Source of the DNA: Escherichia coli
GTDB lineage: Bacteria; Pseudomonadota; Gammaproteobacteria; Enterobacterales; Enterobacteriaceae
NCBI RefSeq assembly: GCF_030384885.1
Contig: NZ_CP128613.1
Strand: one strand, 5' to 3'
Length of the DNA: 64,000 nt
Of this stretch, positions 5,972 to 61,256 are shown one piece after another. The notes under the pieces are model-generated. The model had not been told where the DNA came from, searched no databases, and worked only from the letters and a program-made list of their open reading frames with translations. The translations under genes and the position numbers were made by a program. How positions within the stretch are numbered: position 1 is the first letter of the stretch; each line of letters begins with the position of its first letter.

Positions 5972-6523
5972 ATGAAAAAGCTTATCGTTTCAAGTGTATT
6001 GGCATTCATAACATTTTCTGCGCAGGCCGCAGCATTTCAGGTCACTAGTAATGAAATAAAAACAGGAGAGCAACTTACAACGTCTCATGTATTTTCTGGA
6101 TTTGGGTGTGAGGGGGGTAATACATCGCCCTCATTAACCTGGTCTGGTGCTCCAGAAGGCACCAAAAGCTTTGCCGTAACTGTGTATGATCCAGATGCGC
6201 CTACAGGCAGTGGATGGTGGCACTGGACGGTTGCTAATATTCCAGCAACGGTAACATATTTGCCCGCTGATGCAGGAAGACGTGATGGTACAAAACTTCC
6301 GACTGGTGCTGTCCAAGGCCGAAATGATTTTGGCTATGCAGGATTTGGTGGAGCATGTCCTCCCAAAGGAGATAAACCCCATCATTACCAGTTTAAAGTA
6401 TGGGCTCTAAAAACTGATAAGATTCCTGTAGATTCTAATTCCAGCGGAGCGTTAGTTGGTTATATGCTTAATGCCAATAAAATTGCAACCGCTGAGATAA
6501 CACCCGTTTATGAGGTAAAGTAG
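5972..6523 (+). CDS. ybcL: Periplasmic PEBP/RKIP-family protein YbcL
   Basis: 183-aa ORF with N-terminal signal peptide MKKLIVSSVLAFITFSAQAAAF; matches YbcL as I recall it. Confidence 0.8.
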   Translation: MKKLIVSSVLAFITFSAQAAAFQVTSNEIKTGEQLTTSHVFSGFGCEGGNTSPSLTWSGAPEGTKSFAVTVYDPDAPTGSGWWHWTVANIPATVTYLPADAGRRDGTKLPTGAVQGRNDFGYAGFGGACPPKGDKPHHYQFKVWALKTDKIPVDSNSSGALVGYMLNANKIATAEITPVYEVK

Positions 6524-16732: not shown

Positions 16733-16759
16733 TAAAGGTTGTTTTACGACAGACGATAA
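16733..16759 (+). promoter_or_regulatory. sigma28 (FliA) promoter for fliC
   Basis: TAAAGGTT-N11-GACGATAA, 77 nt upstream of the fliC ATG. Confidence 0.65.
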
Positions 16760-16835: not shown

Positions 16836-18542
16836 ATGGCACAAGTCATTAATACCAACAGCCTCTCGCTGATCACTCAAAATAATATCAACAAGAACCA
16901 GTCTGCGCTGTCGAGTTCTATCGAGCGTCTGTCTTCTGGCTTGCGTATTAACAGCGCGAAGGATGACGCAGCGGGTCAGGCGATTGCTAACCGTTTTACT
17001 TCTAATATTAAAGGCCTGACTCAGGCGGCCCGTAACGCCAACGACGGTATCTCCGTTGCGCAGACCACTGAAGGCGCGCTGTCCGAAATCAACAACAACT
17101 TACAGCGTATTCGTGAACTGACGGTTCAGGCCACTACAGGGACTAACTCCGATTCTGACCTGGACTCCATCCAGGACGAAATCAAATCCCGTCTCGACGA
17201 AATTGACCGCGTATCCGGCCAGACCCAGTTCAACGGCGTGAACGTACTGGCAAAAGACGGTTCGATGAAAATTCAGGTTGGTGCGAATGACGGCCAGACT
17301 ATCACTATTGATCTGAAGAAAATTGACTCTGATACGCTGGGGCTGAATGGGTTTAACGTTAACGGCAAAGGTACTATTGCGAACAAAGCTGCTACAGTCA
17401 GCGATCTGACCGCTGCTGGTGCAACGGGAACAGGTCCTTATGCTGTGACCACAAACAATACAGCTCTCAGCGCTAGCGATGCACTGTCTCGCCTGAAAAC
17501 CGGAGATACAGTTACTACTACTGGCTCGAGTGCTGCGACCTATACTTATGATGCGGCTAAAGGGAACTTCACCACTCAAGCAACAGTTGCAGATGGTGAT
17601 GTTGTTAACTTTGCAAATACTCTGAAACCAGCGGCTGGCACTACTGCATCAGGTGTTTATACTCGTAGTACTGGTGATGTGAAGTTTGATGTAGATGCTA
17701 ATGGCGATGTGACCATCGGTGGTAAAGCCGCGTACCTGGACGCCACTGGTAACCTATCTACAAACAACGCCGGCATTGCATCTTCAGCGAAATTGTCCGA
17801 TCTGTTTGCTAGCGGTAGTACTTTAGCGACAACTGGTTCTATCCAGCTGTCTGGCACAACTTATAACTTTGGTGCTGCGGCAACTTCTGGCGTAACCTAC
17901 ACCAAAACGGTAAGTGCTGATACTGTTCTGAGCACAGTACAGAGTGCTGCAACGGCTAACACAGCAGTTACTGGTGCGACAATTAAGTATAATACAGGTA
18001 TTCAGTCTGCAACTGCGTCTTTCGGTGGTGCGAATACTAATGGTGCTGGTAATTCGAATGACACCTATACTGATGCAGACAAAGAGCTCACCACAACCGC
18101 ATCTTACACTATCAACTACAACGTCGATAAGGATACCGGTACAGTAACTGTAGCTTCAAATGGCGCAGGTGCAACTGGTAAATTTGCAGCTACTGTTGGG
18201 GCACAGGCTTATGTTAACTCTACAGGTAAACTGACCACTGAAACCACCAGTGCAGGCACTGCAACCAAAGATCCTCTGGCTGCCCTGGACGACGCTATCA
18301 GCTCCATCGACAAATTCCGTTCATCCCTGGGTGCTATCCAGAACCGTCTGGATTCTGCGGTGACTAACCTGAACAACACCACTACCAACCTGTCTGAAGC
18401 GCAGTCCCGTATTCAGGACGCCGACTATGCGACCGAAGTGTCCAACATGTCGAAAGCGCAGATTATCCAGCAGGCCGGTAACTCCGTGCTGGCAAAAGCC
18501 AACCAGGTACCGCAGCAGGTTCTGTCTCTGCTGCAGGGTTAA
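16836..18542 (+). CDS. fliC: Flagellin FliC (568 aa; H type not assigned, not the K-12 allele)
   Basis: Conserved N-terminus MAQVINTNSLSLITQNNINKNQSALSSSIERLSSGLRINSAKDDAAGQAIANRF and C-terminus ...SKAQIIQQAGNSVLAKANQVPQQVLSLLQG; Thr/Ala/Gly/Ser-rich central region. Confidence 0.95.
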   Translation: MAQVINTNSLSLITQNNINKNQSALSSSIERLSSGLRINSAKDDAAGQAIANRFTSNIKGLTQAARNANDGISVAQTTEGALSEINNNLQRIRELTVQATTGTNSDSDLDSIQDEIKSRLDEIDRVSGQTQFNGVNVLAKDGSMKIQVGANDGQTITIDLKKIDSDTLGLNGFNVNGKGTIANKAATVSDLTAAGATGTGPYAVTTNNTALSASDALSRLKTGDTVTTTGSSAATYTYDAAKGNFTTQATVADGDVVNFANTLKPAAGTTASGVYTRSTGDVKFDVDANGDVTIGGKAAYLDATGNLSTNNAGIASSAKLSDLFASGSTLATTGSIQLSGTTYNFGAAATSGVTYTKTVSADTVLSTVQSAATANTAVTGATIKYNTGIQSATASFGGANTNGAGNSNDTYTDADKELTTTASYTINYNVDKDTGTVTVASNGAGATGKFAATVGAQAYVNSTGKLTTETTSAGTATKDPLAALDDAISSIDKFRSSLGAIQNRLDSAVTNLNNTTTNLSEAQSRIQDADYATEVSNMSKAQIIQQAGNSVLAKANQVPQQVLSLLQG

Positions 18543-18562
18543 TCGTCTGAATGCCTCTCAAA

Positions 18563-18585
18563 CCCCGCCACCGGCGGGGTTTTTT
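18563..18585 (+). terminator. Rho-independent terminator of fliC
   Basis: ccccgcc-acc-ggcgggg followed by tttttt. Confidence 0.8.
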
Positions 18586-18707
18586 CTGTCCGCAATTTAC
18601 CGGTAACCCCCAAATAACCCCTCATTTCACCCACTAATCGTCCGATTAAAAACCCTGCAGAAACGGATAATCATGCCGATAACTCATATAACGCAGGGCT
18701 GTTTATC
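18586..18707 (+). promoter_or_regulatory. fliA promoter region (class 2 FlhDC-dependent plus sigma28 autoregulated, by established knowledge)
   Basis: GCCGATAA sigma28 -10 element at 18675-18682; the -35 and FlhDC box were not confidently placed. Confidence 0.4.
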
Positions 18708-19427
18708 GTGAATTCACTCTATACCGCTGAAGGTGTAATGGATAAACACTCGCTGTGGCAGCGTTATGTCCCGCTGGTGCGTCACGAAGCATTGCGCCTG
18801 CAGGTTCGACTGCCCGCGAGCGTGGAACTTGACGATCTGCTACAGGCGGGCGGCATTGGGTTACTTAATGCCGTCGAACGCTATGACGCCCTACAAGGAA
18901 CGGCATTTACAACTTACGCAGTGCAGCGTATCCGTGGCGCTATGCTGGATGAACTTCGCAGCCGTGACTGGGTGCCGCGCAGCGTGCGACGCAACGCGCG
19001 TGAAGTGGCACAGGCAATAGGGCAACTGGAGCAGGAACTTGGCCGCAACGCCACGGAAACTGAGGTAGCGGAACGTTTAGGGATCGATATTGCCGACTAT
19101 CGCCAAATGTTGCTCGACACCAATAACAGCCAGCTCTTCTCCTACGATGAGTGGCGCGAAGAGCACGGCGATAGCATCGAACTGGTTACTGATGATCATC
19201 AGCGAGAAAACCCGCTACAACAACTGCTGGACAGTAATCTGCGCCAGCGGGTGATGGAAGCCATCGAAACGTTGCCGGAGCGCGAAAAACTGGTATTAAC
19301 CCTCTATTACCAGGAAGAGCTGAATCTTAAAGAGATTGGCGCGGTGCTGGAGGTCGGGGAATCGCGGGTCAGTCAGTTACACAGCCAGGCCATTAAACGG
19401 TTACGCACTAAACTGGGTAAGTTATAA
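18708..19427 (+). CDS. fliA: Flagellar sigma factor sigma28 (FliA)
   Basis: 239-aa ORF MNSLYTAEGVMDKHSLWQRYVPLVRHEALRLQVRLPASVELDDLLQAGGIGLL... Confidence 0.95.
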   Translation: MNSLYTAEGVMDKHSLWQRYVPLVRHEALRLQVRLPASVELDDLLQAGGIGLLNAVERYDALQGTAFTTYAVQRIRGAMLDELRSRDWVPRSVRRNAREVAQAIGQLEQELGRNATETEVAERLGIDIADYRQMLLDTNNSQLFSYDEWREEHGDSIELVTDDHQRENPLQQLLDSNLRQRVMEAIETLPEREKLVLTLYYQEELNLKEIGAVLEVGESRVSQLHSQAIKRLRTKLGKL

Positions 19428-28378: not shown

Positions 28379-28454
<76 letters not shown>

Positions 28455-28507
28455 GTTTAAAAGACATCGGCTTCAGCGGATGTCCGGCTGAAAGGCCTGA
28501 AGAATTT

Positions 28508-28581
28508 GGCGCGTTAACAAAGCGGTTATGTAGCGGATTGCAAATCCGTCTAGTCCGGTTCGACTCCGGAACGCGCCTCCA
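28508..28581 (+). tRNA. cysT: tRNA-Cys (anticodon GCA)
   Basis: ggcgcgttaacaaagcggttatgtagcggattgcaaatccgtctagtccggttcgactccggaacgcgcctcca. Confidence 0.95.
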
Positions 28582-28593
28582 CTTTCTTCCCGA

Positions 28594-28680
28594 GCCCGGA
28601 TGGTGGAATCGGTAGACACAAGGGATTTAAAATCCCTCGGCGTTCGCGCTGTGCGGGTTCAAGTCCCGCTCCGGGTACCA
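28594..28680 (+). tRNA. leuZ: tRNA-Leu (anticodon TAA), long variable arm
   Basis: gcccggatggtggaatcggtagacacaagggatttaaaatccctcggcgttcgcgctgtgcgggttcaagtcccgctccgggtacca. Confidence 0.95.
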
Positions 28681-36939: not shown

Positions 36940-40295
<3,356 letters not shown>

Positions 40296-40730: not shown

Positions 40731-41512
40731 AACCTGTTCCTTATTCTGTGAACTTCAGGTGACATTAAAGCTTTACTCCTAATGGAGAATCGACGCAATC
40801 CCAACTCAGTCAAACAGGTAAATATTAGTGTGATTATTAGTAAATACAATTAATCAATCACTCTCGGTGATCATATGATTTCAACTGTAATTATAAGAAA
40901 ATATTGTACTGATTCTCCATATTAAACAAGTGGTTAATATATCTAAAACATTTTGTTAACATTAAGTGGGTTGTTGCCTGTCTTTGCCTTTAATCAGTTT
41001 ATTGTGTTGTAAGTGCCTGTTTGTAAATAGATTAACTGATTTTGGATTTGACCAATTATTTATAGCAGATGATTATTTACGGTGAGTTATTTTAACTGTG
41101 CGAAACATCTCATTTCGATTATTACGGTTTCACTTTTGCTTACCATCGGTGTGAAAAACTTTTTAACAGATTGAAATACACCCAAAACAAAAGTATGACT
41201 TATACATTTATGTTAAGTAATTGAGTATTTTATGTGATCTGCATCACACATTATTGAAAATCGCAGTACCCCTCCGTTGTATGTGCGTGTAGTGACGAGT
41301 ACAGTTGCGTCGATTTAGGAAAAATCTTAGATAAGTGTAAAGTACCCCCTCTATTTGTAAGGACCTATTAAACCCAATAAGGTGGGGGCTGTTTTATTGC
41401 AGCTTATCGCAACTATTCTAATGCTAATTACTTTTTACCGGGGCTTCCCGGCGACATCACGGGGTGCGGTGAGACCGCATAAAAATAAAGTTGGTTATTC
41501 TGGGTGGGAATA
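40731..41512. promoter_or_regulatory. flhDC master-operon control region (class 1 promoter with multiple regulator inputs by established knowledge); no IS element inserted here
   Basis: About 780 bp AT-rich non-coding region upstream of flhD containing a consensus CRP site. Confidence 0.6.
41233..41248. promoter_or_regulatory. CRP-binding site in the flhDC promoter
   Basis: TGTGA-tctgca-TCACA, a perfect match to the CRP half-site consensus. Confidence 0.7.
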
Positions 41513-41863
41513 ATGCATACCTCCGAGTTGCTGAAACACATTTATGACATCAACTTGTCATATTTACTACTTGCACAGCGTCTGATTGTTCAGGACAAAG
41601 CGTCCGCAATGTTTCGTCTCGGCATAAATGAAGAAATGGCGACAACGTTAGCGGCACTGACTCTTCCGCAAATGGTTAAGCTGGCAGAAACCAATCAACT
41701 GGTTTGTCACTTTCGTTTTGACAGCCACCAGACGATTACTCAGTTGACGCAAGATTCCCGCGTTGACGATCTCCAGCAAATTCATACCGGCATCATGCTC
41801 TCAACACGCTTGCTGAATGATGTTAATCAGCCTGAAGAATCGCTGCGCAAGAAAAGGGCGTGA
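41513..41863 (+). CDS. flhD: Flagellar master regulator subunit FlhD
   Basis: 116-aa product [37 protein letters not shown]...; the track ORF starts 3 codons earlier at 41504 (MGIMHT...). Confidence 0.92.
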
Positions 41864-41865
41864 TC

Positions 41866-42444
41866 ATGAGTGAAAAAAGCATTGTTCAGGAAGCGCGGGA
41901 TATTCAGCTGGCAATGGAATTGATCACCCTGGGCGCTCGTTTGCAGATGCTGGAAAGCGAAACACAGTTAAGTCGCGGACGCCTGATAAAACTCTATAAA
42001 GAACTGCGCGGAAGCCCACCGCCGAAAGGCATGCTGCCATTCTCAACCGACTGGTTTATGACCTGGGAACAAAACGTTCATGCTTCGATGTTCTGTAACG
42101 CATGGCAGTTTTTACTGAAAACCGGCTTGTGTAATGGCGTCGATGCGGTAATCAAAGCCTACCGTTTATACCTTGAACAGTGCCCGCAAGCAGAAGAAGG
42201 ACCGCTACTGGCATTAACCCGTGCCTGGACATTGGTACGGTTTGTTGAAAGTGGATTACTGCAACTTTCCAGCTGCAACTGCTGCGGCGGCAATTTTATT
42301 ACCCACGCTCACCAGCCTGTTGGCAGCTTTGCCTGCAGCTTATGTCAGCCGCCATCCCGGGCAGTAAAAAGACGTAAACTTTCCCAGAATCCTGCCGATA
42401 TTATCCCACAACTGCTGGATGAACAGAGAGTACAGGCTGTTTAA
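41866..42444 (+). CDS. flhC: Flagellar master regulator subunit FlhC
   Basis: 192-aa product [35 protein letters not shown]... with Cys4 zinc site (...CNCCGGNF...CSLCQPP...). Confidence 0.93.
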
Positions 42445-42469
42445 CTGATACGGTGTGGCGAAACATTCC

Positions 42470-42503
42470 AGCAGCGGTAACGACGTACCGCTGCTTTTTT
42501 TTG
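42470..42503 (+). terminator. Rho-independent terminator after flhC
   Basis: agcagcggta-acgacg-taccgctgct (10-bp perfect stem) followed by tttttttt. Confidence 0.8.
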
Positions 42504-42570
42504 CCCCAATCGCGCGTTAACGTCTGACGACTGAACATCCTGTCATGGTCAACAGTGGAAGGATGATGTC

Positions 42571-43454
42571 GTGCTTATCTTATTAGGTTACCTGGTTGTT
42601 CTCGGTACAGTTTTCGGCGGTTATCTGATGACCGGTGGAAGCCTTGGAGCACTCTATCAACCCGCTGAACTGGTGATTATTGCCGGTGCAGGGATTGGGT
42701 CGTTTATCGTCGGCAATAATGGCAAAGCGATTAAAGGCACGCTGAAGGCGCTGCCGTTACTATTTCGTCGCTCCAAATATACCAAAGCAATGTATATGGA
42801 TCTGCTGGCTCTGCTTTATCGGTTGATGGCGAAATCGCGGCAGATGGGGATGTTTTCGCTGGAACGCGATATTGAAAATCCCCGTGAGAGCGAGATCTTC
42901 GCCAGCTACCCACGCATCCTTGCGGATAGCGTCATGCTTGATTTTATCGTCGATTATCTGCGCCTGATTATCAGCGGTCACATGAATACCTTCGAAATTG
43001 AAGCCCTGATGGATGAAGAGATTGAGACGCACGAAAGCGAAGCAGAAGTCCCAGCGAACAGTCTGGCATTGGTCGGGGACTCACTTCCGGCGTTTGGTAT
43101 TGTCGCGGCTGTGATGGGGGTCGTTCACGCGTTAGGTTCAGCCGATCGTCCTGCCGCCGAGCTGGGGGCGCTTATCGCACATGCGATGGTGGGGACTTTC
43201 CTCGGTATTTTATTGGCTTACGGATTTATTTCCCCATTAGCGAGTGTTTTACGTCAGAAAAGCGCCGAAACCAGCAAAATGATGCAATGCGTGAAAGTCA
43301 CACTGCTTTCTAATCTGAACGGTTACGCACCGCCTATCGCCGTTGAGTTTGGTCGCAAAACGCTCTATTCCAGCGAACGTCCGTCGTTTATTGAACTGGA
43401 AGAGCATGTGCGTGCGGTGAAAAATCCGCAACAACAGACGACAACCGAGGAAGC

Positions 43455-43458
<4 letters not shown>
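42571..43458 (+). CDS. motA: Flagellar stator protein MotA
   Basis: 295-aa ORF from GTG at 42571, [34 protein letters not shown]... Confidence 0.93.
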
Positions 43459-46874: not shown

Positions 46875-46902
46875 TTATCCCGATTTCCTCAATTGAAATG
46901 AA

Positions 46903-46929
46903 CCCGATGATCTGCGCATCGGGTTTTTT
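46903..46929 (+). terminator. Rho-independent terminator after cheW
   Basis: cccgatg-atctgcg-catcggg followed by tttttt. Confidence 0.75.
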
Positions 46930-46960
46930 ATGTCAATTTTGCGGTGGATGGCATCATTAA

Positions 46961-46987
46961 TAAAGTTTCCCTCCTTCTTGCCGATAA
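46961..46987 (+). promoter_or_regulatory. sigma28 (FliA) promoter of the tar-tap-cheRBYZ (meche) operon
   Basis: TAAAGTTT-N11-GCCGATAA, exact match to the sigma28 consensus, about 30 nt upstream of the tar ATG. Confidence 0.8.
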
Positions 46988-53317: not shown

Positions 53318-53325
53318 TTTGTATT

Positions 53326-53378
53326 GCCTGATGTGGCGTAACCGCGTCATATCAGGCGATGACGCCGCATCCGACAAA
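53326..53378. repeat. REP/BIME-like palindromic element after cheZ
   Basis: gcctgatgtggcgtaaccgcgtcatatcaggc, then an inverted REP-like unit gacgccgcatccgaca; resembles the E. coli REP consensus. Confidence 0.5.
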
Positions 53379-60421: not shown

Positions 60422-61177
<756 letters not shown>

Positions 61178-61223
61178 TTTTTACCGTTGCATCATGTCGC
61201 CCAATATGATGCTTGCTCGTACC

Positions 61224-61256
61224 AGGCCCCTGCAATTTCAACAGGGGCCTTTTTTT
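61224..61256 (+). terminator. Rho-independent terminator after cutC
   Basis: aggcccctg-caatttcaa-caggggcct followed by ttttttt. Confidence 0.8.

Follow-up and report, generated by a model that had tools for sequence, protein, structure and literature searches.

An Escherichia coli flagellar region with a seed-variant motR and a short fliC 3′ untranslated region in place of FliX

To our knowledge, the flagellar small RNAs (sRNAs) FliX and MotR have been characterized in Escherichia coli K-12 only. The DNA analyzed here, a stretch of 64,000 nucleotides that will be called the window, contains the fliC-fliA junction and the flhC-motA junction of another E. coli strain, which raises the question of whether the two sRNAs are encoded there. 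It can be stated with considerable confidence that positions 42408-42502 are motR, in an allele with U at nt 49 and A at nt 54 (U49/A54), and that positions 18543-18585 are a short, ancestral fliC 3′ untranslated region (3′UTR) with its terminator, FliX being absent. Sequence and genome comparison show the homology, the promoter, the terminators, that the FliX seed is absent, how frequent the alleles are and in which direction the indel went; the expression of MotR in this strain and the functional effect of its seed variant are what we infer. The genes concerned are the following.

fliD, minus strand: in the flagellar gene order ahead of fliC
16836-18542, plus strand: fliC, flagellin of the FliC/FljB family, 568 amino acids, stop codon at 18540-18542
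18708-19427, plus strand: fliA
41504-41863: flhD
41860-42444: flhC
42571-43458: motA, start codon GTG

Strain 2013C-4282 (NZ_CP027579.1) matches the window colinearly in both the fliC-fliA junction and the motR region, with 100% identity in each. The flhC-motA spacer measures 126 nt (42445-42570), exactly as given in the preliminary description of this DNA, with flhC ending at 42444 and the GTG of motA at 42571. Upstream of flhD, the uspC-flhD regulatory spacer (40731-41503) is ~773 nt long, its counterpart in enteropathogenic E. coli (EPEC) being 779 nt, and it carries no IS element, whereas K-12 MG1655 has IS1H there. The K-12 annotation also has an antisense RNA, AsflhD, over the 5′ end of flhD.

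In RefSeq NC_000913.3, motR (b4828) occupies 1977208..1977302, i.e., 95 nt that overlap the last 37 nt of flhC. The published MotR sequence begins with ACAACTGCTGG (oligonucleotide table, PMC10578931), and its promoter was located within flhC, from where it also serves motAB-cheAW (Melamed et al., 2023 eLife, PMC10578931). With K-12 b4828 and the published MotR gBlock as references, the corresponding features in the window are as follows.

42375-42401, plus strand: sigma28 (FliA) promoter of motR and motAB-cheAW, TAAACTTT-N11-GCCGATAT, within the flhC coding sequence
42408-42502, plus strand: motR, a 95-nt sRNA in the motA 5′UTR; its first 37 nt coincide with the end of flhC
42450-42461, plus strand: MotR seed (nt 43-54); pairing partner, positions +141 to +152 of the rpsJ coding sequence
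42470-42502, plus strand: MotR intrinsic terminator and Hfq-binding module, with a 10-bp stem (42470-42495), a 6-nt loop and U8
42503-42570, plus strand: rest of the motA 5′UTR, outside the sRNA; the K-12 motR annotation stops at the U-tract

The full 95 nt of the published RNA were aligned to 42408-42502 by BLAST with 93 identical positions (97.9%, E = 5e-46), and probe SM569 for MotR (TACGTCGTTACCGCTGCTGGAATGTT) fully matches the window. This alignment places MotR in the strain, at 42408-42502. The RNA is identical to the MotR of EPEC E2348/69, its terminator is identical to that of K-12, and the motR region is found at ≥95% identity in 5,376 of 5,426 complete E. coli genomes. Terminator scans returned 2 sites per region, as compared to 0.4 expected from shuffled sequences. 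The preliminary description had thus found the right locus for MotR, but not its coordinates, which it had put at 42445-42570. Likewise, the terminator it had assigned to flhC (42470-42503) does exist as a hairpin with a T8 run ending at 42502, but it is MotR's own terminator.

Matches to the sigma28 consensus TAAAGTTT-N11-GCCGATAA were found at six positions in the 64-kb window, where 0.63 would be expected. The motR promoter has two mismatches to this consensus, shows no difference from the K-12 sequence and has its −10 element ending 7 nt upstream of the +1 of MotR. Besides this promoter, three matches are located directly upstream of fliC, fliD and tar, respectively, and the first of these reads:

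16733-16759: sigma28 promoter of fliC, from the consensus scan

A promoter with perfect consensus (TAAAGTTT-N11-GCCGATAA) is present at 46961-46987 on the plus strand and is presumably the tar promoter; an RNA of the Rfam family C0465 at 46894-46971 on the minus strand abuts or overlaps it. The two other matches, with three mismatches each (6394-6420, plus strand; 39140-39166, minus strand), may be due to chance.

Considering this arrangement, MotR is very probably expressed in the strain. FliA-containing RNA polymerase would initiate at the promoter inside flhC, and most motR transcripts would halt at the hairpin-U8 terminator, yielding a 95-nt Hfq-binding sRNA. Read-through of this leaky terminator, which has been described for MotR (PMC10578931), would produce the motAB-cheAW mRNA. 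MotR was found on Hfq by RIL-seq in EPEC (PMC10578931), and, since EPEC E2348/69 carries the same allele, the U49/A54 RNA is very likely an expressed, Hfq-bound RNA as well. Position, sigma28 promoter, length of 95 nt, terminator and the seed triplet discussed below are all shared with the MotR of K-12; what differs is A49U and C54A in the rpsJ-pairing stretch.

These two differences from K-12 lie at 42456 (nt 49, T instead of A) and at 42461 (nt 54, A instead of C) and bear on the pairing with rpsJ. In K-12, MotR uses nt 43-54 to pair within the rpsJ coding sequence, which raises the levels of S10 protein, read-through of flagellar operons and the number of flagella. The register of this pairing, MotR 43-54 with rpsJ 152-141, is fixed by a pair of mutations, i.e., MotR-M1, in which GTG at nt 46-48 was changed to CAC, and the compensatory rpsJ-M1, in which CAC at positions 147-149 of the coding sequence was changed to GTG; MotR-M1 is a loss-of-function mutant (PMC10578931). 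Within this register, K-12 MotR forms 12 contiguous pairs, whereas the window allele has a U-U mismatch at nt 49 and an A-G mismatch at nt 54 and keeps 10 of the 12 pairs, including the M1 triplet. Duplex prediction with RNAduplex on whole mRNAs gave overlong duplexes with large loops, and seed-restricted windows were used instead. The predicted energies of the MotR-rpsJ duplex are −22.4 kcal/mol for K-12, −18.7 kcal/mol for an allele with U49 only, −15.1 kcal/mol for the window allele and −10.3 kcal/mol for M1, although energy alone is a poor discriminator: the validated FliX-rpsS duplex is equalled by 9.5% of random segments of the window. The U49-only allele occurs in O145:H28, so at least one intermediate seed allele exists. 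The variants in the window cost ~7 kcal/mol of predicted duplex energy, and the seed site, the best one on the rpsJ mRNA in the case of K-12 MotR, is no longer the best in the case of the window allele. The grip of the window MotR on rpsJ is therefore predicted to be weaker than in K-12.

How far this weakening goes is the point on which an alternative to our reading deserves most attention. MotR might be made but have diverged to such an extent that the U49/A54 seed activates rpsJ poorly, and the link from MotR via S10 to read-through might be weak or retargeted in this lineage; we regard this as possible rather than probable. Both variable positions lie inside the 12-bp rpsJ duplex, where they create the two mismatches, and across seven genomes they are the sole variable positions of MotR upstream of the terminator hairpin. 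The seed site has lost its first rank, and the target shows no compensating change: its sequence in rpsJ is the same in 5,300 of 5,426 genomes. On the other hand, a duplex of −15 kcal/mol with 10 of 12 pairs, the M1 triplet among them, can be sufficient when Hfq participates, and the allele is common, with 1,136 of 5,426 complete genomes (21%) having the window type and 2,980 (55%) the K-12 type. Moreover, EPEC has the same allele and its MotR was reported on Hfq, and nt 49 and 54 are non-coding positions just past the flhC stop codon, where changes may be neutral. Candidate pairings of MotR with fliC at +26, +119 and +190, within the published probing fragment (−70 to +220), score between −16 and −20 kcal/mol, from which we draw no conclusion. 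We keep to the reading in which the U49/A54 MotR, with its two rpsJ mismatches, is very probably made and has a weaker predicted grip on rpsJ.

At the other locus, the K-12 sRNA is well delimited. In RefSeq NC_000913.3, fliX (b4827) occupies 2001912..2002106, 195 nt that start 4 nt past the fliC stop codon and end 122 nt before fliA. FliX is processed from the fliC 3′UTR, and a form of ~100 nt, FliX-S, holds one REP element; the published sequences begin with TTGTAACCTG for FliX and GAATTTGCAC for FliX-S (oligonucleotide table, PMC10578931). Its seed, GUCAGCAACGUGC, was validated by mutation, the targets being rpsS, rplC, rpsQ and fliC (Melamed et al., 2023, PMC10578931): FliX-M1 changes GCA at nt 161-163, inside GTCAGCAACGTG and directly 5′ of the terminator, to CGT, and the compensatory rpsS-M1 changes TGC to ACG (PMC10578931). 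At an OD600 of ~2, the K-12 fliX-M1 mutant had more flagella. K-12 FliX is composed of two REP elements, the seed and the terminator. The window has the following features between fliC and fliA.

18543-18562, plus strand: 20-nt linker that joins the fliC stop codon to the terminator, TCGTCTGAATGCCTCTCAAA; K-12 has ~170 nt of FliX body here
18560-18585, plus strand: fliC intrinsic terminator, hairpin AAACCCCGCC-ACC-GGCGGGGTTT at 18560-18582, T6 at 18580-18585
18586-18707, plus strand: fliA promoter region with GCCGATAA at 18675-18682, outside any sRNA

A strong terminator directly after fliC (18563-18585) had been noted before, and it is confirmed: the hairpin, with its GC core at 18563-18579 and its T6 run, folds at −17.7 kcal/mol (z = −3.1), and none of 200 shuffled sequences folds as well. 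The slot that FliX occupies in K-12, from the fliC stop codon to the terminator, is therefore present at 18543-18585, but it is 43 nt long instead of 195 nt, and the fliC-fliA spacer measures 165 nt, as compared to 320 nt in K-12. The fliA promoter region is invariant in alignments of the sampled E. coli genomes. Alignment of the spacer to that of K-12 revealed that ~150 nt of FliX are missing from the window, comprising the 5′ region, both REP elements, the start of FliX-S and the seed, and no REP element was seen between fliC and fliA. In BLAST searches with FliX and FliX-S, the match at the fliC 3′ end is confined to FliX nt 172-194, i.e., 23 identical nt that are the terminator at 18563-18585, and the seed 20-mer has no match with three or fewer mismatches in the whole 64-kb window. 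Alignment of both regions with the published sRNAs, which had been proposed beforehand as a check, has thus returned a full-length match for MotR and only 23 nt for FliX. In short, the window shares with K-12 FliX and FliX-S the genomic slot in the fliC 3′UTR upstream of the fliA promoters and the terminator hairpin, whereas the length of 195 nt, the REP elements, the FliX-S 5′ end and GUCAGCAACGUGC are found in K-12 only. On this comparison, FliX is not encoded in the window, and the RNA from this slot falls outside the FliX family. With respect to 3′UTRs with REP or BIME elements (Rfam ES036/CssrF, naRNA4, REP-derived), the K-12 FliX insert matches this class, and no such element is present at the site in the window. 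Elsewhere in the window, a REP-like palindrome at 53318-53377 is the sole part that resembles the REP portion of K-12 FliX (77-85% over 27-40 nt).

The long allele, defined as K-12 FliX with 60-nt flanks at ≥80% coverage, is present in 3,502 of 5,426 genomes (64.5%). Of 60 genomes sampled at even spacing, ~39 had an insert of ~154 nt and ~20 had none, and intermediate sizes did not occur. About one third (~35%) of complete E. coli genomes have a short 3′UTR, including H4 strains such as O104:H4. The exact junction of the window is rare, with 25 genomes that include IAI39, CE10 and MP1. Short alleles of four kinds were compared, the others being those of O104:H4, of strain 2D and of the TUM1887 type; they share one architecture, and neither REP elements nor seed occur in any of them. 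A search of the available literature for a reported FliX polymorphism found none.

The polarity of this indel was deduced from other species. When a single genome of each species was scanned, 34 species other than E. coli proved to have a flagellin gene immediately ahead of fliA; the scan did not pick up E. fergusonii, E. marmotae or E. ruysiae. The short form was found in 32 of the 34, with a spacer of 159-175 nt, a linker of 17-28 nt and CCCCGC..GCGGGG-T6 at −143/−144 from fliA, and the FliX seed was found in none of the 34. The short 3′UTRs of Enterobacter, Citrobacter, Leclercia and Buttiauxella have the layout of the window, with a linker that ends in AAA, and differ in the linker sequence alone. 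The window linker TCGTCTGAATGCCTCTCAAA is homologous to the linkers of Enterobacter and Leclercia, e.g., TCGCCTGAATACGCTCAAA. Since the short form occurs in 32 of 34 other species and in about one third of E. coli, it is ancestral, and K-12 FliX arose by an insertion within Escherichia. The opposite possibility, that the window allele is a plain deletion of the K-12 insert, was rejected: the ancestral linker (…GCCTCTCAAA) adjoins the terminator in the window, is shared with Enterobacter and Leclercia and is missing from the long allele. As it has kept the terminator-side CTCAAA, which the long allele lacks, the window allele is not a deletion derivative of the latter.

Among the 34, the only species with a long allele is E. 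albertii, in which seed and terminator have diverged, and the FliX insertion may therefore predate E. coli; some short alleles may then have returned with imported fliC alleles. In the long, REP-bearing 3′UTR of E. albertii NBRC 107761, the seed has diverged (GTCAGCAACCTG) and the terminator, which has no T-run, is weakened; the fliC of this strain has an in-frame stop near the 3′ end (…KAN*VPQQVLSLLQG). In E. coli TUM1887 and L2_E1649, the fliC 3′ end (...LSLLR*) and the linker TTTACACTTATCGCTCAAA are nearly identical to those of Citrobacter, which suggests that flagellin alleles were imported along with their own 3′UTR. Enterobacter sp. R1 has a fliC-fliA spacer of 326 nt, in which two copies of the terminator (−307 and −143) enclose ~164 nt of unrelated, AT-rich sequence that was inserted independently at this very site.

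In the strain studied here, 18543-18585 is an ordinary terminator that ends fliC transcription before the fliA promoters, and we infer that the short 3′UTR yields no functional RNA. It seems unlikely that it yields instead another Hfq-bound mini-RNA of ~40-45 nt, consisting of the linker UCUGAAUGCCUCUCAAA and the terminator, or a longer fragment of the fliC end, which would act as a regulator or Hfq sponge with targets of its own. A hairpin followed by U6 is what Hfq 3′ modules typically look like, Hfq could still be bound by a short terminator fragment, and the terminator and the preceding AAA are conserved across genera, but termination alone accounts for the conservation of the terminator, and most linker positions, except for the A-rich terminator-side end, vary between genera and between E. 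coli alleles, unlike a conserved seed. Nor did a substitute seed emerge in 18400-18562: its best pairing with the validated rpsS site (−21.6 kcal/mol) is equalled by 20% of random segments, in a test that is weak, as the corresponding value for true FliX is 9.5%. In favor of a mini-RNA, RNA from the fliC 3′UTR was reported on Hfq, as “FliX,” in Salmonella (PMC10578931), where this UTR is short and non-homologous. In Salmonella, as in C. sedlakii, another 3′UTR of ~60 nt and then fliB come after fliC, and, since this 3′UTR is unrelated in sequence, the Salmonella “FliX” cannot be homologous. EPEC was also considered as evidence that short 3′UTRs give rise to “FliX,” which was rejected, as E2348/69 has the long allele. 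The simple terminator remains our reading of this segment. Finally, the preliminary description had proposed loci for both sRNAs in this DNA and had placed FliX at 18400-18585, derived from the 3′ end of fliC; this reading is refuted at the sequence level and has next to no probability left: the terminator at 18563-18585 is indeed identical to that of K-12 FliX, and fliC is sigma28-dependent (promoter at 16733-16759), as any 3′ fragment of it would be, but the match covers 23 of 195 nt without the seed, the REP elements and the FliX-S 5′ end, the published northern probe SM043 would pair over only 7 nt, and 18400-18542 is fliC coding sequence, which was never part of FliX because K-12 FliX starts past the fliC stop codon.

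In the arrangement that we propose, the fliC transcript ends ahead of the fliA promoters, as in the ancestral enterobacterial arrangement, and K-12 FliX is a REP-bearing insertion of ~150 nt that created the seed. Since this insertion is absent, the strain lacks the FliX brake on flagella synthesis. The findings on MotR and FliX in the window are known biology, and the earlier interpretation of the two loci is half right. For annotation, motR belongs at 42408-42502, and fliX should be called neither here nor in other E. coli strains with a short 3′UTR. Pipelines miss motR and fliX or pass wrong calls, since Rfam 15 has neither family. An Rfam scan of the window gave no match to FliX or MotR, which says nothing about their presence, since the K-12 loci themselves match only the REP families ES036 and naRNA4, inside FliX.

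With respect to regulation, FliX is a derived and dispensable insertion that is missing from about one third of E. coli, and the variation in MotR ahead of the terminator hairpin falls precisely on bases in contact with rpsJ. These two findings limit the generality of the K-12 model, in which MotR and FliX exert opposing control over the S10 operon and the number of flagella, and they provide natural pairs of FliX and MotR alleles with which this model can be tested. A broader view may be offered tentatively, and we would not put it higher than that: the sigma28-dependent sRNA layer of K-12 might not be fixed in E. coli, with strains that ancestrally lack the FliX brake, have a mismatched MotR seed and show an absent or rewired coupling between S10 and flagella, and FliX might be a recent sRNA, born from a REP-bearing insertion into a terminator-proximal 3′UTR.

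Two other RNA loci were seen in the window. On the plus strand, three tRNA genes are clustered at 28379-28677; EPEC E2348/69 has the syntenic genes between pgsA and yecA, with the annotation Gly-Cys-Leu. Also on the plus strand, 60949-61256 encodes the sRNA MicL at full length (Rfam RF02654, 365.8 bits).
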